Origin: a virus
Taxonomy: Duplodnaviria > Caudoviricetes
Direction: 5' to 3' (one strand)
DNA length: 58,109 bases
IMG/VR virus record: IMGVR_UViG_3300027983_000019
Span: 1-58,109 of that record
Position 1 is the stretch's first letter. Each line of letters starts with the position of its first letter. Made by a program: the position numbers and the translations under genes. Below, piece by piece: positions 23,758-49,388 of the stretch. The notes below the pieces were generated by a model, which was not told where the DNA came from, made no database searches, and saw only the letters and a list, made by a program, of their open reading frames with translations.

Positions 23758-23791
23758 AAAAAACCCTCGACTTGTTATGGTCGAGGGTTTT
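23758..23791 (-). terminator. Attenuator terminator of tRNA operon A
   Basis: AACCCTCGAC/GTCGAGGGTT stem plus T-run. Confidence 0.85.
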
Positions 23792-23822
23792 AGTTTTAAA
23801 TTAATATCTTTTAATATTTAAC

Positions 23823-23915
23823 TTAATACCTAAGGTCTCGACAATTGTGGTTATAACCACAATCAGTTCCCGCTTTCGCGTCACTCGGTTTATATGTCGG
23901 TTTATTAGTTATCAT
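23823..23915 (-). CDS. Leader peptide A: MITNKPTYKPSDAKAGTDCGYNHNCRDLRY
   Basis: Translated by hand; lies between a promoter (23950-23980) and a terminator; core enriched in K, P, Y, D, A, G, C. Confidence 0.8.
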   Translation of the reverse strand: MITNKPTYKPSDAKAGTDCGYNHNCRDLRY

Positions 23916-24090
23916 TGTTTTTGTTTTTTCTTTGTTTATAAATATAGTACAAATGTAGTAAAAGTTATCTTGTAAGTCAAGTATTTTTTTAATTTATTTT
24001 AATATTTCTTTTTTTCCTTTAATTTAGGTCTTAAACCCTCGTTTCTGATACAAATATAAATAACTTATTTTGATAAATCAAGATAAATCT

Positions 24091-24393
24091 TTATTTTTTA
24101 CCACATTTTTTACATCCTATGTTATCTTTTTTAATTTTTGGTCTCTTATTAATCATTAACTTAATCTGTAATGTAGTTACCATAATAACAACCATGATAA
24201 ATGAATAGGATGATGTTGTTTCTTGAATACCACCACTAAATATATCCTTAACTGATTGAACTCCTGATGATATAACCCATATAACAATGGATATAATGGT
24301 GATAATTTGTGTTAAGTTTCCACCCATAAATCTGTTTAATTCTTGTTGACCACCCTTTTGGTTATCTTTTGGTTTTTCTATTTTTTTATCCAT
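24091..24393 (-). CDS. Two-TM membrane protein
   Basis: Two hydrophobic segments, C-terminal CxxC. Confidence 0.65.
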   Translation of the reverse strand: MDKKIEKPKDNQKGGQQELNRFMGGNLTQIITIISIVIWVISSGVQSVKDIFSGGIQETTSSYSFIMVVIMVTTLQIKLMINKRPKIKKDNIGCKKCGKK

Positions 24394-24400
24394 AATTTTA

Positions 24401-24910
24401 TTAAAATTGTCTAAAATGGTCGATATTAAAAGTAATTGGTGTTATCCCGTCATCTTCATCCATTCCTATTGAAATTGGTTGACAACCGATTAAATGATAA
24501 CTTTCTAATACCCCACCATTTCGTGAGTATAGTTGTAATGTCATATTTTTTTTTAAATTGTTCGTTCTGGAAAAGTTAAACCACTCAAATAACATATTAG
24601 CTTCACCCAAATCCAGAAACTCGACATAATGTTCACATTGTGTTCGTATTGGCATTTGGTTATAATTATGTAAATCTACACCTAACGAACCCATTCTTGG
24701 TTGATTTGTAGATACATGAAAATCTTGATGTCCATCACCTGATGGTATTTGTAAAATCCATCGAACACCATTTAATGGTATAGTTTCTAATAAATGATTT
24801 TGACTTCTTATTTCACTTATAGGTTGAGTAGTTAGTGGCCACACTTTTATAGGTGATTTCTTAACAAATGTTATATTTTCTTTTTTATTACTAGCTATAA
24901 ACAATTCCAT
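24401..24910 (-). CDS. Divergent tail-tube-like (gp19-like) protein
   Basis: LFEWF...KKNMTLQLYSRNGGVLESYHLIGCQP pattern; related to 48143-48706. Confidence 0.5.
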   Translation of the reverse strand: MELFIASNKKENITFVKKSPIKVWPLTTQPISEIRSQNHLLETIPLNGVRWILQIPSGDGHQDFHVSTNQPRMGSLGVDLHNYNQMPIRTQCEHYVEFLDLGEANMLFEWFNFSRTNNLKKNMTLQLYSRNGGVLESYHLIGCQPISIGMDEDDGITPITFNIDHFRQF

Positions 24911-24945
24911 GGCTAAAATATAGAATAACCAATAGACTTGTAAAC

Positions 24946-25407
24946 TTAATAAACAAACTTTAATGTTAATTTATCCCACTCATCATCTTTTTTTTCTTGG
25001 TTACATTTATAACAACACACTTTTAGATTACTAAATTCTTTGGCTAACTCTGGATGTTTGGCTTTTGGGAGGAAGTGGTCAGCGGTAGCCATATCATGAT
25101 GACTTTTAACCTCATCTTTTTTCCAATGGTATAATCTTAATTCTTTTTTACCACAATATTCACAATGTAATTCACCATGGGTCTTTAACATATATAGTAA
25201 AAACTTGGTGTTAAATAACATCTGTTTAAATTTATCGGCTTTCTTTGGGTTTTTTGGCATTGGGTCTATTTCCTTATAGGAATCTATTAATAATAGATAG
25301 TCAGCATATGTACCTTGTAAAGGTTGACCAAAAATTATGTCTTGTACCTTTACATGATTTGTTATTTTTCTAACTATTTTTCTTAACATTACATCTAATA
25401 TAATCAT
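24946..25407 (-). CDS. HNH endonuclease
   Basis: CEYCG...TADHFLPK...NLKVCCYKCNQEK. Confidence 0.85.
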   Translation of the reverse strand: MIILDVMLRKIVRKITNHVKVQDIIFGQPLQGTYADYLLLIDSYKEIDPMPKNPKKADKFKQMLFNTKFLLYMLKTHGELHCEYCGKKELRLYHWKKDEVKSHHDMATADHFLPKAKHPELAKEFSNLKVCCYKCNQEKKDDEWDKLTLKFVY

Positions 25408-25470
25408 TTTTTTAGATAAATTAAACTTTAACTATTCAATGTTATGATATATTTATAGAAAAACAAAAAT

Positions 25471-25812
25471 ATGAACATTAGAAAAATAATAAAGGAGGAG
25501 ATTGATAACTTTGATTGGTTTGATGAGGGTGAAACTCCATTATCGCGGTTAATTGATAATTTTGGTGATTTGACACCGGTTGTTAGGGGTAATCTAACAT
25601 TCTATGCTGATAATAATAATAATAATAAAACAATTTTTTATTATTATCAGGATGAAGAAAATGGACTTTGTTATATTAATTATGATGAAATATGGTCAGT
25701 TTTGGAGTCTCGTTTTGGGATTAACTATAAGGAAATTCAGGTGGTTATAACCAAGTGGTTGGATGAGGTATACGGATTAACGGGACTCACACCTTCAAAA
25801 TCGATTTGGTGA
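25471..25812 (+). CDS. Array-associated small protein paralog
   Basis: MNIRKIIKEEIDNFDW...WLDEVYGLTGLTP-SKSIW. Confidence 0.9.
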   Translation: MNIRKIIKEEIDNFDWFDEGETPLSRLIDNFGDLTPVVRGNLTFYADNNNNNKTIFYYYQDEENGLCYINYDEIWSVLESRFGINYKEIQVVITKWLDEVYGLTGLTPSKSIW

Positions 25813-25904
25813 AATAGTTGAAGGTTGGATGAGGTATACGGAATAACGGGACTTACACCGTACTCTGGAGAATCTTCTGTTTACTTGGCGTTGGATGAGG
25901 TATA
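25758..25904 (+). CRISPR. CRISPR-like mini-array: 2 full and 1 partial 36-bp repeats, two 30-bp spacers
   Basis: Repeats 25758-25793, 25824-25859, 25890-25904. Confidence 0.6.
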
Positions 25905-25932
25905 AAAATAATATGTTAAACTGAAAATAATT

Positions 25933-26381: not shown

Positions 26382-26418
26382 ATTAAAATCAAATAAGTAT
26401 TAAGTTATTTTTAATTAG

Positions 26419-26492
26419 TGTACCAGGAGGGATTCGAACCCCCGACCTTATGGTCCGTAACCATATGCTCTATCCAACTGAGCTACAAGTAC
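26419..26492 (-). tRNA. tRNA-Arg(ACG)
   Basis: TATGG-TTACGGA-CCATA. Confidence 0.9.
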
Positions 26493-26536
26493 ATTGTCAT
26501 AATCGTTAGTGATTAACTCACAACATTATGTTATAG

Positions 26537-26608
26537 TAGACATGGAGGGAGTTGAGCCCTCTTAACTAAGGTATAAGCTTAGCGTAATAACCCTTATACG
26601 ACATGTCC
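26537..26608 (-). tRNA. tRNA-Ile(TAT)
   Basis: CTAAG-CTTATAC-CTTAG. Confidence 0.8.
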
Positions 26609-26610
26609 AT

Positions 26611-26701
26611 TGGTAGAGGGTATGGGATTTGAACCCATGCGTCGTTTAACCGACCTAATAACTTTCCAAGTTATCCTCTTAAGCCACTTGAGTAACCCTC
26701 T
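26611..26701 (-). tRNA. tRNA-Ser(GGA)
   Basis: ATAAC-TTGGAAA-GTTAT, long variable arm, encoded CCA. Confidence 0.88.
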
Positions 26702-26753
26702 ATTTTATTTTCTTCCCATACATATAAATATGTGGGAAGTACAAAAACGACCA

Positions 26754-26846
26754 TGGCGGAAGACAAGGGGATTGAACCCTCACTACCCATTAAGGGTAGA
26801 CTTGTTTAGCAGACAAGCTCAACGAACCAATATTTGACTATCTTCC
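26754..26846 (-). tRNA. tRNA-Ser(GCT)
   Basis: CTTGT-CTGCTAA-ACAAG, long variable arm, encoded CCA. Confidence 0.88.
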
Positions 26847-27755
26847 ATTAGTGTGTAGATTATTTATGTACTTAATAATTTTATTAGTTTCTTCTATTAT
26901 AAATTTTTTATGACTTGTTAAATCTTTAACTATATATAATTTTATACCTAATATCTCACATTCTTTTATTTTCTGTTTATCTTTTTCTTTTGTTTTAATT
27001 AAAGAACCATCACCTCTAATGTCTTTGTAGTGGTATATACCATTCCACTCAATACCAAAATTCAATGAGGGTATATAAACATCTAATTCACGATTACCCA
27101 TTAGTGTTAACCTATCATTAAATAAAATAGTTAAATTAGGGAAATAAGTGTTTAGTTCATTTTCTAAATATATTTCAGGTTTAGACCTAAGACCATTTAT
27201 TAATTTATTATTTATTTTATTTCTACACACACCACCACAATATTTTCTTCTATTTAATTGTGTTTTAGTTAACCATAATTTTTTATCACAAACCGGACAA
27301 GTAAACTCAACCTTTGGTTTTGTTAATTTTTCACTTATTTTTCGTTTTATTTCGTTACACTTTTTATCATCAAATCTATCACACAGTTTAACACCTTTTA
27401 AATTGACACTAACTGAGTTTCTTATATTAATTAACCCTTGCTTTGATAGTGTGTACACACTCAATACTCTATCTCTATTAGTTGACGAAGCCGAACAACT
27501 GTGTCCACAATATTTATTACCCCTCACTTCGTATGGTATTACCTCAGAACAATATTCACACATTTTTGGTTCAATGTAATACTTTTCCTTATTCTTTCGA
27601 AGTGTTGTTGTTGTATGTTCACGACCTAATCTCACCATTTTCTCATACGATTTACCTTTATTTGGGTTTTTATCACAATTGACTACATGTGACCCAGCGT
27701 GTTTAGGCGTTTTAATTTCCACCTCACCACAGAATTTACATTCATATTTACACAT
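26838..27755 (-). CDS. Putative free-standing homing endonuclease (zinc-finger repeats plus PD-(D/E)XK/Vsr-like domain) inside tRNA operon B
   Basis: Multiple CxxC and YCxxxC motifs; ELDVYIPSLNFGIEWNGIYHY. Confidence 0.75.
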   Translation of the reverse strand: MCKYECKFCGEVEIKTPKHAGSHVVNCDKNPNKGKSYEKMVRLGREHTTTTLRKNKEKYYIEPKMCEYCSEVIPYEVRGNKYCGHSCSASSTNRDRVLSVYTLSKQGLINIRNSVSVNLKGVKLCDRFDDKKCNEIKRKISEKLTKPKVEFTCPVCDKKLWLTKTQLNRRKYCGGVCRNKINNKLINGLRSKPEIYLENELNTYFPNLTILFNDRLTLMGNRELDVYIPSLNFGIEWNGIYHYKDIRGDGSLIKTKEKDKQKIKECEILGIKLYIVKDLTSHKKFIIEETNKIIKYINNLHTNGR

Positions 27756-27799
27756 ATTACTTTATATATAAATATGCACGTGACACCCAAAACGAATAG

Positions 27800-27870
27800 C
27801 ACAAACGGTTTTAATCGAAAAAACTCGTGAAGCTTTTGGAGAGCCCACCGACACCAAGCCTGTCGTTTGT
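27800..27870 (-). tRNA. tRNA-Trp(CCA), divergent D arm
   Basis: Acceptor ACAAACG/CGTTTGT, anticodon arm GGGCT-CTCCAAA-AGCTT, T-arm GTTTT-TTCGATT-AAAAC. Confidence 0.7.
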
Positions 27871-27875
27871 ATTTG

Positions 27876-27948
27876 TTGTGTCGTAGGGAGTCGAACCCTA
27901 TTATTCTATCTTATCAGGATAGCCACTAAACCGTCCATGCCCGACACA
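27876..27948 (-). tRNA. tRNA-Ile(GAT)
   Basis: CTATC-CTGATAA-GATAG. Confidence 0.8.
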
Positions 27949-27955
27949 ATGTTTG

Positions 27956-28026
27956 CTCTCCGTGGTGGTACTGACCCACCTTCCTCTGATTAACAATCAG
28001 GAGCTTCACTTTAAAGCTTACGAAGA
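27956..28026 (-). tRNA. tRNA-Asn(GTT)
   Basis: CTGA-TTGTTAA-TCAG. Confidence 0.8.
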
Positions 28027-28064
28027 GTATTTCAATTATAAGGTTGGTGACTTATAACGTATTG

Positions 28065-28136
28065 CGGACTGGGAGAATAACGATATCTCGGCCTTCACCT
28101 TAACAGGGTGTTGCTCTTCCTCTGAGCTACCAATCC
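28065..28136 (-). tRNA. tRNA-Asn(GTT)
   Basis: CACC-CTGTTAA-GGTG. Confidence 0.82.
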
Positions 28137-28149
28137 TTTTTTACTTTAG

Positions 28150-28237
28150 CGGAGAGCGGAGGAACCGACCCCCGTACCCTTTCGCGTAGCCTAGGTTTCA
28201 AATCTAGTCGCATCTCCATGACACTGCTTCACTCTCC
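28150..28237 (-). tRNA. tRNA-Ser(TGA)
   Basis: CTAGA-TTTGAAA-CCTAG, long variable arm. Confidence 0.8.
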
Positions 28238-28247
28238 ATTATTTTTG

Positions 28248-28320
28248 GGTGTATGAGGAATTACGATATCCCGACCTTCGATTCCACAAACCGACACTCT
28301 TCCTCTGAGCTACACACACC
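28248..28320 (-). tRNA. tRNA-His(GTG)
   Basis: TCGGT-TTGTGGA-ATCGA, extra 5' G. Confidence 0.85.
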
Positions 28321-28324: not shown

Positions 28325-28495
28325 TTAATCCAGTTCAACAAAAATTATCATCTTACCTTTTTCTTTTTTAAACTTTAACTCCCCATGGTATCCACCTTGG
28401 TCAGCCTTTTCTCTGTGTTCATCCAAGATTTTATCAAAGTTATCTTGGAACTCCTTTATTTTTACCTCACCTATTTTTCTAACTAAATCACCCAT
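28325..28495 (-). CDS. Small hypothetical protein at the head of tRNA operon B
   Basis: MGDLVRKIGE...; start at 28495 lies downstream of the terminator. Confidence 0.55.
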   Translation of the reverse strand: MGDLVRKIGEVKIKEFQDNFDKILDEHREKADQGGYHGELKFKKEKGKMIIFVELD

Positions 28496-28506
28496 AATGT
28501 CTATGT

Positions 28507-28542
28507 AAAAAAAAATCCCCACCTCGGTTTGAGATGGGGATT
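28507..28542 (-). terminator. Attenuator terminator of tRNA operon B
   Basis: AATCCCCATCTC/GAGGTGGGGATT stem plus T-run. Confidence 0.85.
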
Positions 28543-28567: not shown

Positions 28568-28645
28568 TTACACACATCTCGTCATCTTCGTTATCCACGA
28601 ATTACGACTGATATTAATATTATGTATGTTATTATTAGTTTTCAT
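28568..28645 (-). CDS. Leader peptide B: MKTNNNIHNINISRNSWITKMTRCV
   Basis: Translated by hand; lies between a promoter (28681-28711) and a terminator; codons 4-18 are only N, I, H, S, R, W. Confidence 0.85.
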   Translation of the reverse strand: MKTNNNIHNINISRNSWITKMTRCV

Positions 28646-28730
28646 TTTCTTTTGTTTTTTCCTTGTTTATAAATATACTACAAATATAGTAAAAGTTTAC
28701 CGTTGTGTCAAGTGTTTTTTAATTTATTTT

Positions 28731-29529: not shown

Positions 29530-29571
29530 TTATTTGTGTTAATTTAAGTTTAATATAAATATACACAAAAG

Positions 29572-29839
29572 TAAATAAGGAAGGAATCGAACCCCCACAA
29601 CCTACTTTATTCGGTTATACCTTTCCGTGGTGACTCGGTTTTATATTATAGTATTATTGTTTTCTTGTACAAATTTTAAGGACCACCTGATTAAGGTAGG
29701 TTATTATCTAACATGGGTATCAACCCGTCCCACGCCATAAACCACTACACCACTCACTTTATATATCTCGGATGCGTTAATTAATGGACTTTTGATTCAC
29801 CATTTCGAAGTACGCGTCTACCATTCCGCCACTCATTTA
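29572..29839 (-). ncRNA. tRNA-like RNA with a large (about 170-190 nt) insertion in the anticodon arm
   Basis: D arm GTGGCGGAATGGTAGACGC and T arm GGGGGTTCGATTCC flank a long structured insert. Confidence 0.55.
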
Positions 29840-29843
29840 TTTG

Positions 29844-29912
29844 TAATTAAGGTTGGACTCGAACCAACGACCTCCCCTAAAGGATTGCTCTAACCAACTG
29901 AGCTACTTAATC
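29844..29912 (-). ncRNA. tRNA-like RNA with a shrunken anticodon arm
   Basis: Canonical D and T arms; anticodon arm reduced to TCC-TTTA-GGG. Confidence 0.6.
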
Positions 29913-30160
29913 CACCCTCTCATAACCGACTTGAGTAAGAACCTATTGAGGGAACACTAATATGATGTTTTCGGTTTTCACAGTATCTCCATGGGACTAA
30001 CCCATTGTGATTACCAAACCTCCACTAGTGGTTTTCTACTAGAAATCCGAACTGGTATCTTTGACTTTACTAATAATGGTTAGACACTAACGAGTAGGTA
30101 CTAAACACTTTCGAATTGGGGTAACTAAGATACAAAGTTACCATACACATCGATGATTTG

Positions 30161-30230
30161 TGTTGGGTGGGGGTGTCGAACCCTCATCTCCCGCCTGTGG
30201 CGAGTGTCCTAGCCATTAAACGAACCCAAC
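30161..30230 (-). ncRNA. tRNA-like RNA with a 3-5-nt anticodon loop
   Basis: CTCGCC-ACA-GGCGGG. Confidence 0.6.
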
Positions 30231-30298
30231 AACCAACAATATCAAACTGTAATTATCAATTATTGGTTCTAAAAACAACTATTACAGTAATTGTTTTA

Positions 30299-30767: not shown

Positions 30768-30926
30768 ATATTATCTAATTTTGTTGTCTCTATTGTTATA
30801 CAAACCTAATCATTTTTTATTAGTTTGACAAGTATTTTTGTGTTTTTTTTTATTTTATTTTAAAAAGGTTATCCAACCATTGTAACACTTAATCCTCGTT
30901 GTTGGTACAACTATATGTATAATATA

Positions 30927-31775: not shown

Positions 31776-31796
31776 TTATTGTTAATATATATTTAG

Positions 31797-31872
31797 TAGC
31801 GGGAGCCAGAGTCGAACTGACGAATGTATGGCTTATGAGACCATAGAGGAATACCACACCTTCTACCCCACG
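31797..31872 (-). tRNA. tRNA-Met(CAT), initiator-like
   Basis: ATGGT-CTCATAA-GCCAT; unpaired C1. Confidence 0.75.
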
Positions 31873-31877
31873 TTTTG

Positions 31878-32017
31878 TGTACTTCTCAGGATTTGAACCT
31901 GAACGTGTGTACCTTAATTTAATCTACCCATAGTGTGTGGGTGGTTTGTAATCGTGTCCACACAACACTCAAACATTTACCATTAAACTAGGTGCGTCTA
32001 CATTCCGCCACAAGTAC
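31878..32017 (-). ncRNA. tRNA-like RNA with an about 70-nt expansion of the anticodon arm
   Basis: Acceptor GTACTT/AAGTAC, D arm GGCGGAATGTAGACGC, T arm CAGG-TTCAAAT-CCTG. Confidence 0.55.
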
Positions 32018-32039
32018 TTTAATAAGTATATACTAAACT

Positions 32040-32228
32040 TTATTGTTTGTCAAGCCGTTTCCTGACATCTTCGTTTAATTTATCATTACCTTTAATAATG
32101 TGTCTTGGCTCAAACGGACAATGTCGACACCCGTTGGAACAACATTGACCCTTATAAGCCAAGAACTTTTCTGTGAGTATAATACACCCATCTTCTTTGT
32201 AAAAATTTTCTTCGTTAGACATAAACAT
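32040..32228 (-). CDS. Small Cys-rich protein (DUF5522-like)
   Basis: FYKEDG..ILTEKFL..KGQCCSNGCRHCPF. Confidence 0.7.
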   Translation of the reverse strand: MFMSNEENFYKEDGCIILTEKFLAYKGQCCSNGCRHCPFEPRHIIKGNDKLNEDVRKRLDKQ

Positions 32229-32778
32229 ATGATTTCCAATCCTCGTGGATATTTTTATATTGTGATAAGAACTCCATATAAGTTGGTCTATACGGTTCGT
32301 GTCTTATTGTTTTACCTGTTAGTAATTCATATTCCTTCAGTGACATATTACCCTTTTCAAGGTTACAAGTACCACAACAGGTTGCTAAATTTTCCCACGA
32401 GTTTTTACCACCTTTTGATTTTGGTTTAACGTGGTCAATCGTTAAGTTTTTTTCAGATGAACAATATACACACTTGTACTCATCTCTTCTGTAAATATTA
32501 AATCTTGATAATGTTACTTTTTTATGTGGTACATATACATAATTGTTTAATCTAACAATTGTTGGTCTTTTAAAACCTTTACCATCATCCGTTAATAACG
32601 TTGGACATTCACCGATTAAATTTAAATAATCCTCGTCTCTAATAGAAACCTTAATAGGGCTATCTTCTTCATACGATACAACATCAGCTTTCCCTTTGTA
32701 AGCGAGCCTAAACCCTCTATCAAAGTTCATCACAGTCATTGGTGACGCATCCATATTTAATACTAATATTTTGTTCAT
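32215..32778 (-). CDS. HNH endonuclease (McrA-like)
   Basis: RDEYKCVYC, LTIDHVKPKSKGG, WENLATCCGTCN. Confidence 0.9.
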   Translation of the reverse strand: MNKILVLNMDASPMTVMNFDRGFRLAYKGKADVVSYEEDSPIKVSIRDEDYLNLIGECPTLLTDDGKGFKRPTIVRLNNYVYVPHKKVTLSRFNIYRRDEYKCVYCSSEKNLTIDHVKPKSKGGKNSWENLATCCGTCNLEKGNMSLKEYELLTGKTIRHEPYRPTYMEFLSQYKNIHEDWKSYVYV

Positions 32779-32822
32779 AACATTTTAATTATAAATAGTC
32801 TAAACTATTAAGTCAAGTGAAG

Positions 32823-32922
32823 TGACCCATAAAGGAATCGAACCTTATATTTGACAGGATAAAACCCATCATTACCGAAGTATGTTATATATCATTTGCA
32901 CAAATGTTTCAATACACGGGTC
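32823..32922 (-). ncRNA. Degenerate tRNA-like element
   Basis: Acceptor GACCCGT/ATGGGTC and T arm AAGG-TTCGATT-CCTT; no clear anticodon. Confidence 0.4.
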
Positions 32923-32927
32923 AAAAG

Positions 32928-33008
32928 TACCTTCGGTGGGAGTCGAACCCACACGCCATAAGACAATAAATCCTAAATCTATCGTGTCTACCATTCCACC
33001 ACGAAGGC
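32928..33008 (-). tRNA. tRNA-Leu(TAG)
   Basis: ATAGA-TTTAGGA-TTTAT. Confidence 0.88.
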
Positions 33009-33038
33009 ATTTATTAGTCTTTCCTAATAGTCTTAAAG

Positions 33039-33122
33039 TAGAGGTGATGGGAGTCGAACCCACAAGCCACAAAGGACATTGCCGCTTAAAAACAACGTGT
33101 ATACCAGTTTCACCACACCTCC
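33039..33122 (-). tRNA. tRNA-Leu(TAA)
   Basis: TTGTT-TTTAAGC-GGCAA, Leu-type D and variable arms. Confidence 0.82.
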
Positions 33123-33136
33123 ATGTGTAATTATTG

Positions 33137-33207
33137 TATCCCCAGATGGAATCGAACCACCATCATACTCAAAATCCTGAGTGGTCGTAACTCCACATAT
33201 ACAGGAC
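33137..33207 (-). ncRNA. Degenerate tRNA-like element (6-nt anticodon loop)
   Basis: ACTCA-GGATTT-TGAGT; T arm GGTGG-TTCGATT-CCATC. Confidence 0.4.
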
Positions 33208-33212
33208 GTTTG

Positions 33213-33287
33213 TGAGGGTAGAGGGAGTCGAACCCCCGGCCTATTGTTTGTAAGACAACCACTCTAAACCAACTGAGCTATACCCCC
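33213..33287 (-). tRNA. tRNA-Val(TAC)
   Basis: TTGT-CTTACAA-ACAA. Confidence 0.9.
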
Positions 33288-34078
33288 TTATATTCGTAAT
33301 GTTTTTTCCATTTTCTAATCGAGTTATCACTAACACCATACTTTTTACCTGTACCAACATAACCTAATGTTTCTATCTCTTCAAGTAGTTGGTTATATGT
33401 TGGTCTAACAACCTTTCGTTTAGATACTTCACTACAACCAACACACCTTAAACTTTTATTGTTTATTTTACAACCACAACTACAAAAATTTTCTTTTTTT
33501 AACCTTTTATTATTTTTACCTGAGAAAGTATCTAAAGTGGTGTCACAGTTGGGACAAACTATTCTAAGATTCTCAATTCTATTGTCGGTATTAATGCCGT
33601 TTATATGGTCTAATATTAAAGACATCTTTTTACCCATCCATTCATCGTTTTGACCACACAACTCACATATTCTCTCTTTAATCCCTTCCTTATATAATCT
33701 TTTTTTTAGTGTTGACGTACCGTATGTACTACCACTAACTAAAATTTCCTCTGTTGGTATTTTTAACCTTTTCCTCGTTATACCATTATTAAAATGTGAT
33801 ATATCTAAATTATATAAATTCATATAATTTTTAATTATTTTATATGATGCTCCAGTGATTGTAATACCCAAATCAATACATAGTTCCCTAATACTTCCAT
33901 AATCTTTAATTTTAGAACTTAACACTTTTTCGTTATATACTCTATGGTTATATTCAATAAAATTATCATTAGCGTATACATAAACTTCATTAACAGGTGT
34001 TTTTAACATACTAGCCACCATAAACGGACCACACTTACTATAGTTTTTTTTAATAATATTTTTTTCATGTTCTCTCAT
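33278..34078 (-). CDS. HNH homing endonuclease inside tRNA operon C
   Basis: LILDHINGINTDNRIENLRIVCPNC; C-terminal HTH-like GKKYGVSDNSIRKW. Confidence 0.85.
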   Translation of the reverse strand: MREHEKNIIKKNYSKCGPFMVASMLKTPVNEVYVYANDNFIEYNHRVYNEKVLSSKIKDYGSIRELCIDLGITITGASYKIIKNYMNLYNLDISHFNNGITRKRLKIPTEEILVSGSTYGTSTLKKRLYKEGIKERICELCGQNDEWMGKKMSLILDHINGINTDNRIENLRIVCPNCDTTLDTFSGKNNKRLKKENFCSCGCKINNKSLRCVGCSEVSKRKVVRPTYNQLLEEIETLGYVGTGKKYGVSDNSIRKWKKHYEYKGV

Positions 34079-34136
34079 AATACTAACCTTTACATATAAA
34101 TACGTGTGGTATTGTAAAAGTTCGATATTTATTTAG

Positions 34137-34209
34137 AGCTAACGATGGGATTCGAACCCACTTCCTCTCAGATACCAACCGAGTGTTCAACCGCATGAAC
34201 TTCGTAAGC
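34137..34209 (-). tRNA. tRNA-Thr(GGT)
   Basis: CTCGG-TTGGTAT-CTGAG. Confidence 0.82.
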
Positions 34210-34214
34210 GTTTG

Positions 34215-34289
34215 TGGGACCACTCAGAGTTGAGCTGAGGCCTCATGTGTTTCAAACATGTGTACAATAACCACCTATACGATAGTCCC
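34215..34289 (-). tRNA. tRNA-Phe(GAA)
   Basis: CATGT-TTGAAAC-ACATG. Confidence 0.8.
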
Positions 34290-34301
34290 ATTATTTATTT
34301 G

Positions 34302-34373
34302 AGGTGAATGAGAGAATCGAACTCTCGTCATTGGATTACAAAACCAACATAATTACCACTATACTAATTCACC
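34302..34373 (-). tRNA. tRNA-Thr(TGT)
   Basis: TTGGT-TTTGTAA-TCCAA. Confidence 0.82.
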
Positions 34374-34379
34374 TTATTG

Positions 34380-34449
34380 TAGCGTACCCGAGGTTCAAAC
34401 TCGGTTAATCATCCTTATGAGAGATAATCCTTTTTCACTAAGTTACGCC
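34380..34449 (-). tRNA. tRNA-Met(CAT) (or Ile2)
   Basis: TATCT-CTCATAA-GGATG. Confidence 0.7.
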
Positions 34450-34467
34450 ATTACTATTATTTTAAAG

Positions 34468-34552
34468 TTGTCTCGGTAGGGTTCGAACCTACAACGGATT
34501 TCTCTCTCTCCCCGGTCAAAACGGGACGTGTTGCCAATTACACCACGAGACA
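34468..34552 (-). tRNA. tRNA-Gln(TTG) with a long variable region
   Basis: TCCCG-TTTTGAC-CGGGA; U1-A72 pair. Confidence 0.82.
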
Positions 34553-34575
34553 ATATTACCAATAAATCAAAGAAC

Positions 34576-34614
34576 AAAAAAAAACCCGAACTCAATAATT
34601 TGAATTCGGGTTTG
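34576..34614 (-). terminator. Attenuator terminator of tRNA operon C
   Basis: AAACCCGAATTCA/TGAGTTCGGGTTT stem plus T-run. Confidence 0.85.
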
Positions 34615-34636: not shown

Positions 34637-34735
34637 TCATGAGACATTAGACACACCAAACCCGAATACAGTTTGTAACTGTACCATAAAGACTTGCGTC
34701 AGGGTAAATAAAGATATGTTTGTTAATGTTTTCAT
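34637..34735 (-). CDS. Leader peptide C: MKTLTNISLFTLTQVFMVQLQTVFGFGVSNVS
   Basis: Translated by hand; lies between a promoter (34771-34801) and a terminator; codons 9-24 are only L, F, T, Q, V, M. Confidence 0.85.
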   Translation of the reverse strand: MKTLTNISLFTLTQVFMVQLQTVFGFGVSNVS

Positions 34736-34810
34736 TTTGTTTTTAATTTTCTTTGTTTATAAATATACTACAAATATAGTAAAAGTTCTCTTATAAGTCA
34801 AGTATTTTTT

Positions 34811-42467: not shown

Positions 42468-44105
42468 TTACTGAGTTACCTCAACGACAGAGACGTTAGT
42501 TTCCACTTCATCCCATGCGTCTATTAGTACCTTAGCGAACTGACTTTCTTTCCCAGTCCACCCTGACAATATAGCTCCTCTATATAAATTTTCAGGAACA
42601 ACCGAGTTATTATATCCAGCTGTTTGTATCGTAAACATATTAACCTTCGGGTTAACATCTTTCCTATACCTCTCAACTAATTTAAGAACATCGATGTAGT
42701 TCCCATAACTAGTACCACCATAAATATAGTCTTTATAGTCACTTCGGTTTATCCCAAACAACGAACCGTGTCCAGCTTGTTGGTCTGAGTATATAAAGAT
42801 ATTGTCGTAGTGAACTTTGTTTTCGATTGCCTCCTTGAAGAACAACCAAATACCATTTTCAGTTCTTGGACCTTGTTTTTTACCTCGTTCTTTGGTTTCT
42901 TTCATTTGAGATAAGATACCATTTCTTTTCGAAACAGGTTTTAAATCTAGTTTATCACCGAAAACGCCAACCTCACCTTCATCAGATTGTATCGCGGTAA
43001 TTATACTAGACAAGTTACCTATATCAGCAACAGTAACAGTACCATATTCAGAATTAAAAGAACCCCAAGCCGAACCAGAGTTATCAGATAAACAAACTGT
43101 TTTACCCTTTAATTTAGGTAAATTTTTCACCGAAATATCAAGACACTCTTCAAGTGCATCTTTCAATAGACCTTCGTGATTAACACCTTCAATAGCTTTG
43201 AACGCTGAGTAATATCTAAAAGGGAATTGTTTACCGTAAAGTACACCGCCTTTTAATTTTTCACACACATCTTTAGTGAATAGTAGGTCATTAACCTCTG
43301 TGAAGATACCTCTAAGATTTATTAGTAAAGCCATATGAGGTATTTTGATTGTATCAAAAATCTCTTTCCATGTTTTACCTTCGGACCTTAAACTTTCCCA
43401 TGTTCGTGAACTTTCTTCCACAGTGACATTACCCGTAGTCATCATCTCTGTAATGACATCTGATTTAGCGTGAGAAATTCTCACTAAATCTATAAGTCCT
43501 TTGGATTTATACTTATTCATTCTGTAAGCGTCGAACTCACCTAACGCGTCAGCCCAAACCCTTTTTACGATTGACGGTAAACCCTTTTTGGTCACATTTA
43601 ACCACATGTAGTAGTCAAACTGATTTGTGATGTCATCAGGTCTGATAATAAGTTCAGAACCAATTTTTCTCATAACACCAGGGTTTTCTTTGTTAAATTC
43701 AACCCTTCCTTCGTGTCTTGCTGCTCTAATAAATATTACAGCTGGGTTCATCCTCATGAAATACTCGTGTCTTAAAGTACGAGCTAATTCCAAAGTCCCC
43801 ATAAAGTTTTCAGTTAATGCCTCATCAATACACTTAGTAAAAACATCTGTTGTTGTTTCAACTTCATCGTCAGAATATAACCCAAGTACGTCATTCTTCA
43901 TAATAGTCTGAATATTGGTTGGTTTATCGTGTGATGCTTTGTAGTAAGATGGTTCACCGAATATTGAACTCCCAGCTACAATCCTTAACGTGTCTAATGG
44001 TTTTAAGGTATAAGATGTACCTCCCATAAAATTTGTTACGGACGTTCCTTCGTGTGTTCTAATACTCGACACTGTTTTCTTAGAAGATTTTGAAAATTTA
44101 CTCAT
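42468..44105 (-). CDS. Ro60/TROVE-domain RNA-binding protein
   Basis: TWES, IPHMALLINLR, QFPFRYYSA and vWA MIDAS-like CLSDNSGS motifs. Confidence 0.9.
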   Translation of the reverse strand: MSKFSKSSKKTVSSIRTHEGTSVTNFMGGTSYTLKPLDTLRIVAGSSIFGEPSYYKASHDKPTNIQTIMKNDVLGLYSDDEVETTTDVFTKCIDEALTENFMGTLELARTLRHEYFMRMNPAVIFIRAARHEGRVEFNKENPGVMRKIGSELIIRPDDITNQFDYYMWLNVTKKGLPSIVKRVWADALGEFDAYRMNKYKSKGLIDLVRISHAKSDVITEMMTTGNVTVEESSRTWESLRSEGKTWKEIFDTIKIPHMALLINLRGIFTEVNDLLFTKDVCEKLKGGVLYGKQFPFRYYSAFKAIEGVNHEGLLKDALEECLDISVKNLPKLKGKTVCLSDNSGSAWGSFNSEYGTVTVADIGNLSSIITAIQSDEGEVGVFGDKLDLKPVSKRNGILSQMKETKERGKKQGPRTENGIWLFFKEAIENKVHYDNIFIYSDQQAGHGSLFGINRSDYKDYIYGGTSYGNYIDVLKLVERYRKDVNPKVNMFTIQTAGYNNSVVPENLYRGAILSGWTGKESQFAKVLIDAWDEVETNVSVVEVTQ

Positions 44106-47262: not shown

Positions 47263-47284
47263 AATATTTATTGTTATACCTAAT

Positions 47285-47733: not shown

Positions 47734-48066
47734 TTAGTTAGGGTCATATAATAACCCATCACCATTAGTGTCAATGTGTACTAATTCTAATGTATCGTAA
47801 ACGATAGGTGAATTGGATTGTTTTGATGTCATTCTCGATTGAATTTCTTGTTCATTTTGCCTTGTTGTTTCTGACATTTTATTGTCAAATTTAAGGAAAT
47901 ATGAACCATAAGATTTGTAGTTAGGTCCTCTTTTTGCGTCGGATTCAACTACTTTTTCTGTTCTAAACTTGTAACGATACACATAAACATCTTTACTTTT
48001 TTGACAAGATATTATTGTTAATGTTATAATAACTATAAATACGATTTTTTTAAATGTGTTTTTCAT
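47734..48066 (-). CDS. Putative lipoprotein
   Basis: IIITLTIIS-CQK. Confidence 0.7.
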   Translation of the reverse strand: MKNTFKKIVFIVIITLTIISCQKSKDVYVYRYKFRTEKVVESDAKRGPNYKSYGSYFLKFDNKMSETTRQNEQEIQSRMTSKQSNSPIVYDTLELVHIDTNGDGLLYDPN

Positions 48067-48142
48067 AATGTTTATCTTTTAGTTTGTCTACAAATATACT
48101 TTACTAAATTGGATTGGCAATGATATTTATGATAAAAGTTTT

Positions 48143-48706
48143 ATGAAATTTGATTATATACACAGGTTCTTACCTATAAATGATGAGGTTATACCATTAA
48201 ATGAAGAAGTTATACCCGAAATGACACCTTTTAATGTACCACACTTATATGAAACAATGAGGGGAAATCGATTTATAATTCATTTTCCAGATGTTCTAAA
48301 TATAGAATCGTGGGTTGTGTCATCGATGGTTAGACCAAGTATCACAATGGGATTAAATGGTAGTCATGAATGGGATGAAATGGTGATTAAATTTAGGGAC
48401 CAAATAGGTGTATCAACTTCAAATAGATTATGGGAATTATTTATTGGTGTTACATCACAAACGGAAACACTAACCGTTCACGGTGATTTACTTAACGAAT
48501 ATCGTGATAGATATTCCGATATTAGAGTAAATGGGTTAACATTTAATTTAGAAATGTTAGACCCAAATGGTGTTGTCGTTAGTAAGTGGACAATTAATAA
48601 TTCTGAAATAATTAATTTTGGGTTTGGAGATTTGTCTTACGATGATGGTGGTGTAGTTGAATGTTCTATGACCGTTAAGCCACAGAACGTCCAACTACAT
48701 TTTTAA
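48143..48706 (+). CDS. Tail-tube-like (gp19-like) protein
   Basis: NRFIIHFP...RPSIT...WDEMVIKFRD...LEMLDPNGVVVSKW...FGDLSY. Confidence 0.7.
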   Translation: MKFDYIHRFLPINDEVIPLNEEVIPEMTPFNVPHLYETMRGNRFIIHFPDVLNIESWVVSSMVRPSITMGLNGSHEWDEMVIKFRDQIGVSTSNRLWELFIGVTSQTETLTVHGDLLNEYRDRYSDIRVNGLTFNLEMLDPNGVVVSKWTINNSEIINFGFGDLSYDDGGVVECSMTVKPQNVQLHF

Positions 48707-48999
48707 ACTAAAGTTGATTCTATTAATGTGAATTCATCTTTGTTAATAGCTTTGGAAATCCACCTATTCAATTCAGAACCTTTCATTTCATCGTAGAAAG
48801 TTGTTGTACCTAAATCATCGGATAAGGTATATTGTGGTTGGTCATAAACTGTATCACTCTCAACCACAGTTGGTATTGGGAATTCGTAGACATTTCCATC
48901 TACTTTAACTTTGTAGTAAATGTTTCCAGCTACATATCGACTTAATTTAGCTATTTCTTTTGACTTATATAAGTCTTTCTTTACATCATTAACATTCAT
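48703..48999 (-). CDS. Hypothetical protein at the end of tRNA operon D
   Basis: 98-aa ORF. Confidence 0.7.
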   Translation of the reverse strand: MNVNDVKKDLYKSKEIAKLSRYVAGNIYYKVKVDGNVYEFPIPTVVESDTVYDQPQYTLSDDLGTTTFYDEMKGSELNRWISKAINKDEFTLIESTLV

Positions 49000-49015
49000 A
49001 TCATTTAATTTTTAG

Positions 49016-49088
49016 AACCCCCGACTGGATTCAAACCAGTGACCGACGCTTTAGAAAAACGTTGCTCTATTCACTGAGCTACAGGGGC
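49016..49088 (-). tRNA. tRNA-Arg(TCT)
   Basis: ACGTT-TTTCTAA-AGCGT. Confidence 0.9.
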
Positions 49089-49100
49089 TTGTTTTTTTAG

Positions 49101-49174
49101 TATTCCCAACGGAATTCGAATCCGTAATCTTCACATTGAAAGTGTGGTGCCTTATCCAATTTGGCCATAGGAAT
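49101..49174 (-). tRNA. tRNA-Glu(TTC)
   Basis: CACA-CTTTCAA-TGTG. Confidence 0.88.
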
Positions 49175-49190
49175 ATTTAATTTTTAGAAC

Positions 49191-49224
49191 AAAAAAAATC
49201 CGATTATTTCTAATCGGATTTTTT
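49191..49224 (-). terminator. Attenuator terminator of tRNA operon D
   Basis: AAAATCCGATTA/TAATCGGATTTT stem plus T-run. Confidence 0.85.
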
Positions 49225-49249
49225 AAAGTTTATATAATACAATATTACT

Positions 49250-49312
49250 TCATATCCGATGTGAATAAGTCTCTCTTTCTTCTCTTCTCTCTATGTTAGT
49301 AATTATTGTCAT
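49250..49312 (-). CDS. Leader peptide D: MTIITNIERREERETYSHRI
   Basis: Translated by hand; core GAG AGA AGA GAA GAA AGA GAG; lies between a promoter (49340-49369) and a terminator. Confidence 0.88.
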   Translation of the reverse strand: MTIITNIERREERETYSHRI

Positions 49313-49388
49313 TGTTTCTTGTTTTTTATAAGTATACTACAAATATAGTAAAAGTATTCTAATTGTCAAGTATTATTTTTTTTATTTT

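Follow-up and report, generated by a model that had tools for sequence, protein, structure and literature searches.

In the window analysed here, that is, the whole stretch of 58,109 bases, each of the four minus-strand tRNA operons (A to D) opens with the same promoter, behind which come an ORF of 20-32 codons and a strong intrinsic terminator (Table 1). It is probable (roughly 75%) that these cassettes are ribosome-mediated transcription attenuators that control tRNA genes and take as control codons those read by the same tRNAs. This interpretation is drawn from sequence, in which the architecture of the cassettes, the match between leader codons and tRNAs, its covariation among relatives and its specificity for frame and isoacceptor can be read directly. 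No earlier description of phage tRNA arrays controlled by a leader ORF and a terminator was found in the literature searched. The window comes from an uncultured giant (jumbo) phage.

A first-pass annotation had described the promoter, short ORF and terminator on the minus strand, and had read them as leader-peptide attenuators codon-matched to the tRNAs that they gate. Every element was found in its place, and the central reading is strongly supported by 34 distinct cassettes, by covariation, by frame and isoacceptor specificity and by geometry; all cassette counts given here take in homologous, non-independent sequences. The claim that all four tRNA operons carry the cassette holds for those four, but it left out a fifth cluster, made up of unusual tRNA-like genes (about 29,560-30,880), which has its own promoter-like site and lacks a leader.

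Promoters and tRNA Genes of the Four Operons

The near-identity of the promoters, also part of the first-pass description, is borne out by a 17-base core that occurs without mismatch exactly four times in the 58,109 bases, each time upstream of a tRNA cluster. Alignment of the four cassettes reveals a near-invariant block running from the -35-like element through the start codon. A search of 118 further loci with the promoter pattern returned 120 matches, 37 of which are followed by tRNAs; a short ORF and a terminator are present in all 37, while tRNAs follow none of the other 83. The Shine-Dalgarno motif is found in only 3 of 54 of the phage's own genes, whose A-rich, G-poor upstream regions resemble those of the leaders. 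A Bacteroidetes host is weakly suggested by the shape of the promoter together with the lack of Shine-Dalgarno motifs. Further promoter-like sites lie within operon C, at 32816 and 32053, and directly upstream of Leu(UAA) in the relative G002, and these internal sites could serve to bypass the attenuator.

Within operon A, tRNA-Lys sits downstream of a 69-codon ORF and an additional terminator; this extra ORF is Lys-rich and accompanied by hairpins. A 65-codon ORF separates the terminator of operon B from its first tRNA. Three tRNA genes of operon B, Ser(UGA), Ile(GAU) and Trp, were called by ARAGORN alone at a relaxed threshold and have no match to the Rfam tRNA model at E<=1, and tRNA-His(GUG) was found by Rfam only. 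The amino-acid sets of the operons (A: A,C,D,G,K,P,Y; B: H,I,N,R,S,W; C: F,L,M,Q,T,V; D: E,R) together comprise all 20 amino acids, as had been claimed, but this total rests on atypical genes, because it depends on the three sub-threshold genes of operon B and on a tRNA-His seen by Rfam only. No tRNA-Trp gene is present besides the atypical one. The Rfam search matched no family other than tRNA.

Table 1. Positions of the cassette elements and tRNA genes in the window
Feature	Position	Strand	Details
Promoter core copies	23948-64, 28679-95, 34769-85, 49338-54	-	0-mismatch search
Promoter A	23948..23980	-	-35-like element to conserved core
Leader ORF A	23823..23915	-	30 codons + stop; control codons cover K,P,Y,D,A,G,C; spacers T, S
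Antiterminator segment A	23827..23843	-	6 contiguous bp with terminator 5' arm; duplex -9.0 kcal/mol; own arm rank 5/18
Intrinsic terminator A	23760..23791	-	-18.2 kcal/mol; T-run; 17 nt upstream of tRNA-Tyr
Operon A tRNAs	22436..23743	-	Tyr(GUA), Pro(UGG), Asp(GUC), Gly(UCC), Ala(UGC), Cys(GCA), 69-codon ORF, terminator 22515-22550, Lys(UUU)
Promoter B	28679..28711	-	
Leader ORF B	28568..28645	-	25 codons + stop; codons 4-18 exclusively N,I,H,S,R,W
Antiterminator segment B	28574..28581	-	6 bp; -7.3 kcal/mol; own arm rank 2/18
Intrinsic terminator B	28514..28542	-	-19.6 kcal/mol
Operon B genes, first part	26418..28319	-	His(GUG), Ser(UGA), Asn, Asn, Ile(GAU), Trp, 305-aa ORF
Operon B genes, after 305-aa ORF	within 26418..28319	-	Ser(GCU), Ser(GGA), Ile(UAU), Arg(ACG)
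Promoter C	34769..34801	-	
Leader ORF C	34637..34735	-	32 codons + stop; codons 9-24 exclusively L,F,T,Q,V,M
Antiterminator segment C	34657..34671	-	about 12 bp; -14.9 kcal/mol; own arm rank 1/18
Intrinsic terminator C	34582..34613	-	-18.5 kcal/mol
Operon C tRNAs	31796..34552	-	Gln, Thr(UGU), Phe, Thr(GGU), HNH ORF, Val, Leu(UAA), Leu(UAG), HNH ORF, Met
Terminator closing operon C	31254-31273		
Promoter D	49338..49369	-	
Leader ORF D	49250..49312	-	20 codons + stop; codons 8-14 only Glu (GAG/GAA) and Arg (AGA x3)
Antiterminator segment D	49253..49261	-	7 bp; -9.2 kcal/mol; own arm rank 1/18; overlaps last sense codons
Intrinsic terminator D	49193..49224	-	-14.7 kcal/mol
Operon D tRNAs	49015..49174	-	Glu(UUC), Arg(UCU)

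Codon Content of the Leaders

As first proposed, the ORF cores encode the amino acids of their own operons: coverage is 100% in all four leaders, with longest unbroken runs of own-set codons of 5 (A), 15 (B), 16 (C) and 7 (D). Most control codons appear singly or in a few copies, not as tandem repeats. Codons foreign to the operon also occur, namely the Thr and Ser spacers of leader A, Tyr and Gln in the op2 leaders of related phages, and a conserved N-terminal stretch. Own-set fraction and coverage are equalled by none (A, B, D) or one (C) of the 321 other small ORFs in the window. When leaders were compared with shuffled operon assignments, a check that the first-pass annotation had suggested, no other of the 24 permutations equalled the true pairing, which matched 63 of 103 codons; the runner-up matched 52, and the average was 27.8.

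The match is specific for frame, since tRNAs of the own operon could read 248 of 347 in-frame codons (71%) versus 110 (32%) and 83 (24%) of 347 in the other two frames; the purine repeats of D-type leaders match in all three. It also extends to the isoacceptor. Where Arg, Ser or Leu is represented in an operon by a single one of its two codon families, the family used agrees with the operon anticodons by 51:7 in the leader body and by 14:15 in the last nine codons. Arg is written CGN ahead of Arg(ACG) operons, though CGN makes up only 91 of 409 Arg codons in the long ORFs of the window, and AGA ahead of Arg(UCU) operons; accordingly, the CGT of leader B fits Arg(ACG) of operon B, and the Glu and Arg codons of leader D fit Glu(UUC) and Arg(UCU). 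In boxes read only by a U34 tRNA, G-ending codons account for 38 of 81 in the leaders versus 3,871 of 20,335 in long ORFs, and all seven leader Pro codons in such boxes are CCG.

Isoacceptor resolution bears on the possibility that the cassettes are classical amino-acid sensors, which would read starvation through uncharged tRNA and tune tRNA output to the nutritional state. Their architecture is identical to that of amino-acid attenuators, and starvation would also yield read-through, because stalling does not distinguish an absent from an uncharged tRNA. Such a sensor is nevertheless very unlikely: codon families track the isoacceptor of the operon, Arg and Ser codons are divided among operons according to where the isoacceptor is located, for which a sensor of amino acids would have no need, and making tRNA would bring no relief from starvation.

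Recurrence and Covariation in Related Phages

Of the 34 distinct cassettes from related uncultured jumbo phages, every one has its control codons inside a reading frame running from ATG to stop. Across 29 counted cassettes, the leader contains 167 of 171 operon amino acids versus 214 of 409 non-operon amino acids, and in each of the seven genomes holding at least two cassettes, pairing the leaders with their actual operons scores above every other assignment. In G002, a 96%-complete relative, the four leader-headed operons contain every one of the 24 tRNA hits that exceed the cut-off.

Leader content on the whole follows the gain and loss of tRNAs, as had been predicted. In G001, tRNA-Pro is absent from the A-type operon and Pro codons are absent from the leader, while the window and G002 possess the two together; in G005, a tRNA-Pro gained by the C-type operon is accompanied by two Pro codons in the leader. 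Likewise, Glu codons are found in the leader body of op2-type operons with tRNA-Glu (L064, L070, L061/L096) and are missing from that of op2-type operons without it. A second clade splits its tRNAs between two operons instead of four, and 19 consecutive codons of its op1 leader span all 11 amino acids of 12 tRNAs. The order of control codons varies among homologous leaders, and the set is conserved. The prediction fails in three lineages, which keep an intact leader despite loss of tRNAs from the operon: only Gly and Leu tRNAs remain in G008/L055, only Ile, Arg and Cys in L038/L050/L051, and the op2 of L096 lacks Thr, Lys, Met and Ala tRNAs.

These patterns weigh on the suggestion that the frames are untranslated or incidental, that the hairpins insulate upstream genes and that the codon match arises from composition or from T-box-like contacts between RNA and tRNA. 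It is true that translation of the leaders is deduced from sequence features, that the D-type repeats match irrespective of frame, and that the promoter-like motif turns up by chance in many unrelated AT-rich genomes. Yet at most one of the 321 small ORFs fits any set equally well, the match depends on frame, the ATG-to-stop frame is kept over the control codons of every distinct cassette, and leader content covaries with tRNAs. Moreover, the terminator is positioned after the promoter rather than before it, and Rfam detects nothing but tRNA, so that a non-regulatory ORF is extremely improbable.

Terminators and Proposed Antiterminator Pairing

The terminators of the window form hairpins with energies between -14.7 and -19.6 kcal/mol, carry T-runs and lie 23-31 nt past each stop codon. 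A terminator is present in all 18 cassettes analysed in detail (8 phage contigs), with energies from -13.4 to -20.3 kcal/mol, and starts 20-31 nt past the stop codon in 15 of them. The first-pass annotation had described complementarity between the end of each ORF and the 5' arm of the terminator; the pairings are short, with about 12 bp in C and 7 bp in D, but only 6 bp in A and B. In its minimum-energy fold, the nascent RNA has segment C paired with the terminator 5' arm, and segment B is predicted to pair with the control-codon region in naked RNA. When ORFs were tested against the 18 terminator 5' arms, the own arm was the best duplex partner in 8 of 18 cassettes and among the top three in 13, with three op1/op2 cassettes of the second clade ranking 11-12. 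In minimum-energy nascent folds, the 5' arm pairs with late ORF codons in 12 of 18.

A ribosome-footprint model gives, for most cassettes, an antiterminator probability of 0.5-0.9 with the A site on control codons, falling to about 0 once it reaches the stop codon. Within this model, the control run stops where a stalled ribosome would start to cover the antiterminator: in 15 of 17 cassettes, no more than three codons separate the last control codon from the modelled boundary. In the thermodynamic model, the observed value is matched by at most 6 of 100 shuffles in only 9 of 18 cassettes; it is reached by 42-79 of 100 shuffles in four of the five op1/op2 cassettes of the second clade, and by 7 of 100 in G007 op2.

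The polarity could in principle be the opposite, or the coupling another, with efficient leader translation favouring read-through or processing of the downstream tRNAs, so that the feedback would be positive or the translation apparatus would undergo a licensing check. Naked RNA of several cassettes is predicted to prefer the antiterminator already, which makes the default state uncertain, and the Lys-rich ORF and hairpins ahead of tRNA-Lys could act in this manner. Such schemes are highly improbable in view of the location of the antiterminator in the ORF tail, where it would be covered once the ribosome has passed the control codons, and of the control run ending at the modelled boundary. 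In addition, in the 15 of 18 cassettes with a spacing of 20-31 nt, a ribosome terminating at the stop codon would sit too far from the hairpin to block it.

Relation to Known Attenuators and tRNA Arrays

The closest known systems are the multivalent leader-peptide attenuators of the enterobacterial thr and ilv operons (thrL, ilvL), to which trpL, hisL, leuL and pheL are related examples. Like the phage cassettes, the thrL/ilvL type places a promoter, a short control-codon ORF, alternative hairpins that exclude each other and an intrinsic terminator ahead of the genes that it regulates, and one leader can sense more than one amino acid. These attenuators, however, regulate enzymes rather than tRNAs, whereas the phage leaders sense up to 11 amino acids through mostly single, non-tandem codons, whose family is set by the isoacceptor encoded downstream. 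The phage element is viral, exists in two to four paralogous copies that share out the code, and matches no Rfam leader family. The leader of E. coli pheST, encoding phenylalanyl-tRNA synthetase, is an attenuator with tandem Phe codons; it too places a gene of the translation apparatus under ribosome-mediated attenuation, with feedback from decoding to supply, but it senses one amino acid and controls the charging enzyme instead of tRNA genes.

T-box riboswitches are structured RNAs that bind uncharged tRNA directly at a single specifier codon, without ORF or ribosome. They resemble the phage leaders in reading tRNA status at a specific codon and in switching a terminator/antiterminator pair; the ATG-to-stop frame, the frame specificity and the many codons of the phage leaders point instead to the ribosome as the reader. 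A leader-peptide trp attenuator motif of Bacteroidetes is represented in Rfam as 'Bacteroid-trp', and would exemplify ribosome-mediated attenuation in the phylum hinted at as host, but it concerns one amino acid and a biosynthetic target and has no sequence relation to the phage leaders, which it does not match in Rfam. The tRNA arrays of T4, T5 and other large phages likewise hold near-complete tRNA sets amid homing endonucleases (here, HNH ORFs); control by a leader ORF and a terminator, present in the arrays of this phage, was not found described for them in the literature searched.

Proposed Mechanism

In the mechanism that we infer, transcription would start at the shared promoter, and the A-rich leader, devoid of a Shine-Dalgarno motif, would load a ribosome that translates the short ORF while RNA polymerase heads for the terminator, reached about 25 nt beyond the stop codon. 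If all control codons are decoded fast, the ribosome would arrive at the ORF tail and the stop codon and cover the segment complementary to the terminator 5' arm, so that the terminator hairpin forms and the tRNA genes stay untranscribed. When a charged isoacceptor is scarce, slow decoding of any one control codon would hold the ribosome upstream, the tail segment would bind the 5' arm, and polymerase would read through into the tRNA genes. The net effect would be a negative feedback at isoacceptor resolution, with each operon on only while its codons decode slowly. The cause of the scarcity would be irrelevant, be it a host pool ill-fitting the AT-rich codon usage of the phage, loss of host tRNAs in infection or a tRNA-targeting defence.

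The first-pass annotation had emphasised the last of these triggers, which would make the cassettes a dedicated counter-defence switch, sensing destruction of host tRNAs by anticodon nucleases, releasing replacements and remaining silent in an undefended host. Known anticodon nucleases target few tRNA species, while the leaders span all 20 amino acids and nearly every phage tRNA. The logic of the cassette would indeed react to tRNA cleavage, and resolution down to codon and isoacceptor suits a tRNA sensor better than an amino-acid sensor. None of the cassettes was linked to a defence or anti-defence gene, though, and the sequence offers nothing that separates a nuclease or starvation trigger from general supply-demand homeostasis. 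Such dedication is therefore unlikely, even if phage tRNAs have been proposed to counter tRNA-targeting defences (PMC10264068), a role that speaks in its favour.

Should attenuation by codon-matched leaders be confirmed, decoding capacity would be fed back onto tRNA transcription in this phage, through a switch that makes more tRNA only when codons are read slowly.

Cassette architecture and tRNA content

The 17-base promoter core has exactly four mismatch-free matches in the window, each upstream of one of the four minus-strand tRNA clusters (operons A to D), and the promoter, short ORF and terminator described before these operons by the first-pass annotation are indeed present in all four. 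Each cassette comprises, in this order, a -35-like element, the 17-base core, an A-rich stretch, an ATG-initiated ORF, a hairpin and a T-run. The leader ORFs (20-32 codons) start 27-40 nt past the core, and the terminators (-14.7 to -19.6 kcal/mol, followed by the T-run) lie 23-31 nt past the leader stop codon. An alignment of the four cassettes is near-invariant over the block that opens with the -35-like element and closes with the ATG; past this block they diverge.

Scans for the promoter core revealed the cassette in relatives, among both uncultured viral and metagenome contigs; tRNA regions were retrieved from seven contigs besides the window, and 18 cassettes were tabulated in detail. 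An intrinsic terminator with a T-run separates the leader ORF from the tRNAs in all 18 (-13.4 to -20.3 kcal/mol), and the distance from stop codon to hairpin is 20-31 nt in 15 of them. An automatic pass over 118 further loci gave 120 promoter-pattern matches: 37 have tRNAs downstream, every one of these with a short ORF and a terminator, and none of the remaining 83 has a downstream tRNA. Overall, 34 distinct leaders were collected. In the related contig G002, which is 96% complete, all 24 above-cut-off tRNA matches fall within four leader-headed operons. A Shine-Dalgarno-like tetramer is found at -20 to -5 in 3 of 54 long window ORFs, versus 7% of random 16-mers; the regions upstream of the phage's long ORFs are A-rich and G-poor, and those upstream of the leaders are alike.

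The tRNA content of the operons is listed in the table. At default thresholds, ARAGORN identifies 23 tRNA genes in the window, all on the minus strand, and an Rfam cmscan of the whole window returns 24 matches, all of them tRNAs. Operon B is the least typical: its His gene is seen by Rfam only, a second Asn gene reaches 32.9 bits in a more sensitive search, and Ser(UGA), Ile(GAU) and Trp appear in ARAGORN at a relaxed threshold only and are absent from the Rfam matches at E<=1. The earlier claim of coverage of all 20 amino acids by the operons therefore stands only if the atypical operon B genes are counted, three of which are sub-threshold. In relatives, the homologues of these atypical tRNAs score normally (in G002, for example, 53 bits for Ile(GAU) and 44 bits for Trp).

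Several further elements lie within the operons. The tRNA-Lys gene of operon A stands behind a 69-codon ORF, 16 residues of which are Lys by our own count, and an additional terminator. The ORF is followed by a small hairpin and then by this strong terminator, which ends 5 nt before tRNA-Lys; its 5' arm has a further potential partner in the small hairpin's 3' arm. Judging from this arrangement, the Lys-rich ORF and its hairpins may form a second control element, specific to Lys; G002 lacks the insert, its Cys gene lying next to its Lys gene. A 65-codon ORF with no Pfam match, placed between terminator B and the first tRNA, would by its position be co-regulated with the operon B tRNAs. By eye, several cassettes of more than one type share a short T-rich motif located after the T-run of the terminator and ahead of the first tRNA (for example in the window and in loci L011, L015 and L017); it may act in processing or pausing. 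Promoter-like sites occur within operon C and, in G002, just before Leu(UAA), and could bypass the proposed attenuator. Operon C also harbors two HNH endonuclease ORFs (Pfam), and an endonuclease-like ORF lies beside tRNA-Met in the related contig G001. In decayed operons, tRNA loss coincides with inserts of ~1 kb, so that homing endonucleases may drive the turnover of tRNA content.

Positions and content of the features discussed, in the window and in related contigs
Feature	Sequence	Position	Strand	Content or context
Operon A	window		minus	leader of 30 codons; Tyr, Pro, Asp, Gly, Ala, Cys, Lys
Operon B	window		minus	leader of 25 codons; at default thresholds Asn, Ser(GCU), Ser(GGA), Ile(UAU), Arg(ACG)
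Operon C	window		minus	leader of 32 codons; Gln, two Thr, Phe, Val, two Leu, Met
Operon D	window		minus	leader of 20 codons; Glu, Arg(UCU)
69-codon ORF	window	22515-22834	minus	region between tRNA-Cys and tRNA-Lys, with the small hairpin and the terminator
65-codon ORF	window	28325-28522	minus	operon B
Fifth cluster	window	29560-30880	minus	tRNA-like genes; promoter-like site near 30830
HNH endonuclease ORF	window	32215-32778	minus	inside operon C
HNH endonuclease ORF	window	33278-34078	minus	inside operon C
T-rich motif	window	about 34555-34580
TROVE protein gene	window	42468-44105	minus	545 aa
Leader-headed tRNA operons	G002	2,410-21,687		span of the 24 tRNA matches
Genes like those of the fifth cluster	G002	14840-15459		inside C-type operon
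Endonuclease-like ORF	G001 (L009)	about 13730-14190		beside tRNA-Met
CUA-anticodon tRNA	G008 (L033/L034)	13406-13497	reverse	beside tRNA-Met
Remaining tRNAs	G008/L055			Gly, Leu only; leader intact
Remaining tRNAs	L038/L050/L051			Ile, Arg, Cys; ~1.1 kb replaces nine tRNAs; leader intact
Lost tRNAs	L096 op2			Thr, Lys, Met, Ala; leader intact

Leader codons match the operon tRNAs

All four window leaders cover 100% of their own set, that is, the amino acids of their operon's own tRNAs, with longest own-set runs of 5 (A), 15 (B), 16 (C) and 7 (D) codons. They were compared with 321 other window ORFs that start with ATG and are 18-40 codons long, drawn from all six frames: an equal fraction and coverage is attained by none for A, B and D and by one for C, and the longest own-set runs are 5, 9, 11 and 3 codons for A to D, respectively. 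Across 29 cassettes, the leader holds 167 of the 171 amino acids with an operon tRNA versus 214 of the 409 without one, in a count whose cells are not independent (many cassettes are homologous) and which left out five cassettes cut by a contig end and kept another cut one, op2 of G007. A fairer test is the assignment of leaders to operons within a genome. The true pairing is the unique best of 24 in the window (63 of 103 codons match, against 52 for the runner-up and a mean of 27.8) and the unique best in all seven genomes with at least two cassettes, so that the comparison with permuted operon assignments proposed by the first-pass annotation comes out in favor of its claim.

Foreign codons are also found in the leaders (T and S in leader A; Tyr and Gln in the leader of op2, one of the two operon types of a second clade), as is a conserved N-terminal stretch. 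By eye, the order of the control codons, i.e., the leader codons for the own set, bears no relation to the order of the operon tRNAs. A correlation between control-codon multiplicity and amino-acid usage (rho 0.68) was discarded: composition leaves its mark on every ORF, and Trp was lost to the tail cut-off.

The match extends to the level of isoacceptors. Where operons carry one codon family only for Arg, Ser or Leu, the leader body favors its own family by 51:7, against 14:15 in the tail, the last nine leader codons. CGN is used for Arg before every Arg(ACG) operon (in the window's long ORFs it accounts for 91 of 409 Arg codons) and AGA before Arg(UCU) operons. Where the clade has two operons, the Ser codons are AGY in the leader of the Ser(GCU) operon and UCN in that of the Ser(UGA) operon. 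A leader that sensed amino acids only is disfavored by this isoacceptor-level choice; the sensed quantity would, from the codons used, be the tRNA rather than the amino acid. In codon boxes read by a U34 tRNA only, the G-ending codon appears in 38 of 81 leader cases versus 19% in long ORFs, and Pro is CCG in 7 of 7. Such rare, wobble-read G-ending codons would, we infer, be the most sensitive to tRNA supply.

Body codons readable by the own operon number 248 of 347 in frame, versus 110 and 83 of 347 in the other two frames, a test for which the D type, a purine repeat, is uninformative. The op2 cassette of G008, whose operon is down to two tRNAs, was omitted from this count, from that of G-ending codons and from the footprint boundaries described below. 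The notion that the cassettes are a chance or untranslated element is disfavored by these statistics, the frame specificity and the covariation described in the next section.

Covariation of leaders and tRNA sets

Leaders of homologous operons follow gains and losses of individual tRNAs. The A-type operons of the window and G002 carry tRNA-Pro, and each of their leaders has two Pro codons; the A-type operon of G001 lacks tRNA-Pro, and its leader has no Pro codon. Conversely, the C-type operon of G005 has gained tRNA-Pro and its leader contains two Pro codons; the other C-type leaders compared (window, G002, G009) are free of them. In the second clade (G006, G007 and relatives) the tRNAs are arranged in two operons, not four, and the leaders follow: 19 consecutive codons of the op1 leader cover all 11 amino acids of its 12 tRNAs, and the op2 leader has eight or nine of the ten amino acids of its set. 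Glu codons are found in the leader body of op2-type operons with tRNA-Glu and in none without it. Among homologous leaders the order of the control codons is shuffled and the set retained, which argues for selection on leader codon content rather than on a peptide.

On the other hand, three lineages keep an intact leader after shrinkage of the operon (see table). The expectation that homologous leaders track tRNA content is therefore borne out by the Pro, Glu and two-operon cases and fails in these three lineages, so that tracking takes place over evolutionary time and is not immediate.

A candidate antiterminator

It had been claimed that a segment near the end of each leader ORF is complementary to the 5' arm of its terminator. 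The pairing is about 12 bp in C and 7 bp in D, but just 6 bp in A and B. Across the 18 cassettes the terminator sequences differ, yet the ORF tail complements the 5' arm; when each ORF was tested for duplex formation against all 18 arms, its own arm was the best partner in 8 and among the top three in 13. In 12 of 18 cassettes, minimum-energy folding of the nascent RNA pairs the 5' arm with codons late in the ORF. For window B and D this fold instead joins the tail to the control-codon region, a predicted arrangement resembling the classical 1:2 hairpin, which a stalled ribosome would open.

In a footprint model where only the RNA downstream of the ribosome folds, the 5' arm is sequestered with probability 0.5-0.9 when the A site is on control codons; a few codons further on sequestration has collapsed, and with the ribosome at the stop codon it is ~0 in most cassettes. 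From the last control codon to this modelled boundary there are at most 3 codons in 15 of 17 cassettes and at most 4 in the other two. In addition, the 20-31 nt between stop codon and hairpin would place a terminating ribosome far enough away not to block the terminator. Opposite polarity, with slow reading of the leader lowering transcription of the tRNAs, is disfavored by this geometry. In a shuffle control of the footprint model, the observed value was reached by at most 6 of 100 shuffles in only 9 of 18 cassettes; those of the second clade are mostly no better than shuffles, op2 of G007 being borderline (7 of 100). The power of this control is modest, as shuffled upstream segments pair with the C-rich arm at probability 0.36-0.68. 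Because of these weak shuffle results, the modelled antiterminator is considered likely but not established, and less certain for the op1 type.

Odd tRNA-like genes and the source phage

A fifth cluster in the window contains at least five tRNA-like genes and has no leader. Three paralogues of 106-116 nt carry an insert of at least 35 nt, and one gene of 69 nt has a shortened anticodon arm. The genes have a short conserved loop motif in common, score 37-51 bits in Rfam and are assigned no normal anticodon by ARAGORN; they may be non-decoding tRNA mimics, and similar genes occur in G002. About 12 kb away, the window encodes a protein with a TROVE (Ro60-like) domain (E 3.4e-5, just above the Pfam cut-off). 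Since bacterial Ro60 proteins work with tRNA-like Y RNAs, the odd genes could by analogy be partners of this protein. In G008, ARAGORN at a relaxed threshold detects an amber-suppressor-like tRNA, a possible sign that stop codons are recoded in this group of phages; in code 11 the window ORFs read normally.

The window is the entire IMG/VR record of 58,109 bases (~31% G+C, estimated 18% complete) and, judging from relatives that reach 318 kb, is a fragment of a jumbo phage. Besides the TROVE protein it encodes an NAPRTase, a DnaJ-like chaperone, an M42 peptidase, a Mom-like protein, a lysozyme and a Dam-type methylase. Neither megablast nor blastn with the window found a close deposited phage; in tblastn a 670-aa window protein gave just two weak matches, to uncultured huge phages, and all matches of the DnaJ-like protein were below 40% identity. 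These searches of deposited sequences yielded no cultured relative and hence no host, and a run search for the window sequence listed DNA contigs only, with no RNA sequencing runs. Host assignment from the promoter motif was abandoned, the 32 matching genome stretches (about 11 Bacteroidota, the others Firmicutes, archaea, etc.) being too mixed. The TTG...TAnnTTTG-like promoter shape and initiation without Shine-Dalgarno sequences recall Bacteroidota; against this mixed taxonomy, they are hints only of such a host.

A probable feedback from decoding to tRNA synthesis

The leader-peptide attenuator reading is supported by the codon match, the isoacceptor and frame specificity and the covariation. 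We place at about three in four the probability that the cassettes are ribosome-mediated attenuators, exerting negative feedback from the decoding speed of a codon set to the transcription of its tRNAs, a regulation predicted from sequence. With less confidence, it is probable that they amount to a virus-encoded closed-loop control of decoding capacity, isoacceptor by isoacceptor. Each leader would be a test message in miniature, composed of codons for which its operon supplies tRNAs and biased to rare, wobble-read G-ending ones, and transcription of the tRNA operon would be set by the infected cell's current reading speed for these codons. The trigger put forward by the first-pass annotation, destruction of tRNAs by anticodon nucleases, is compatible with such a device, and nothing in the evidence singles it out.

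In mode of action, the cassettes would resemble the multivalent leaders of thr and ilv and that of pheST. The amino-acid leader families of Rfam (His, Thr, Leu, Trp, etc.) are unmatched in the window at gathering score, as is the T-box riboswitch. A T-box is a structured RNA that carries a specifier loop and a T-box sequence but no ORF; here the control codons are part of an open frame, and their match is specific to it. As a class, the mechanism belongs to the textbooks; new are the tRNA genes as its target, the breadth (as many as 11 amino acids for one leader and all 20 across the set, counting the atypical operon B genes), the isoacceptor resolution and the viral setting. Titles and abstract openings returned by a full-text literature search mention no leader ORF or attenuator before tRNA genes in phages or bacteria.

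Control of bacterial tRNA genes is known mainly at promoters, and both the control of phage tRNA genes and the reason for their carriage have been debated for decades. If the proposed attenuation is correct, these would be the first tRNA genes under ribosome-mediated attenuation, and leader-peptide attenuation would extend to a new target class and to as many as 11 amino acids for one leader. Being short and modular, the leaders also lend themselves to prediction: a control codon exchanged for one of the synonymous family should switch the controlling tRNA. They could serve as natural sensors of single-isoacceptor supply, and the cassette as a new signature for locating regulated tRNA arrays in other viruses. 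For the phage, the cassettes would let the speed at which codons are read feed directly back on tRNA synthesis, which would explain the sorting of tRNAs into operons whose membership and leaders evolve together and would make phage translation largely independent of the host tRNA pool and robust to tRNA-targeting defences.
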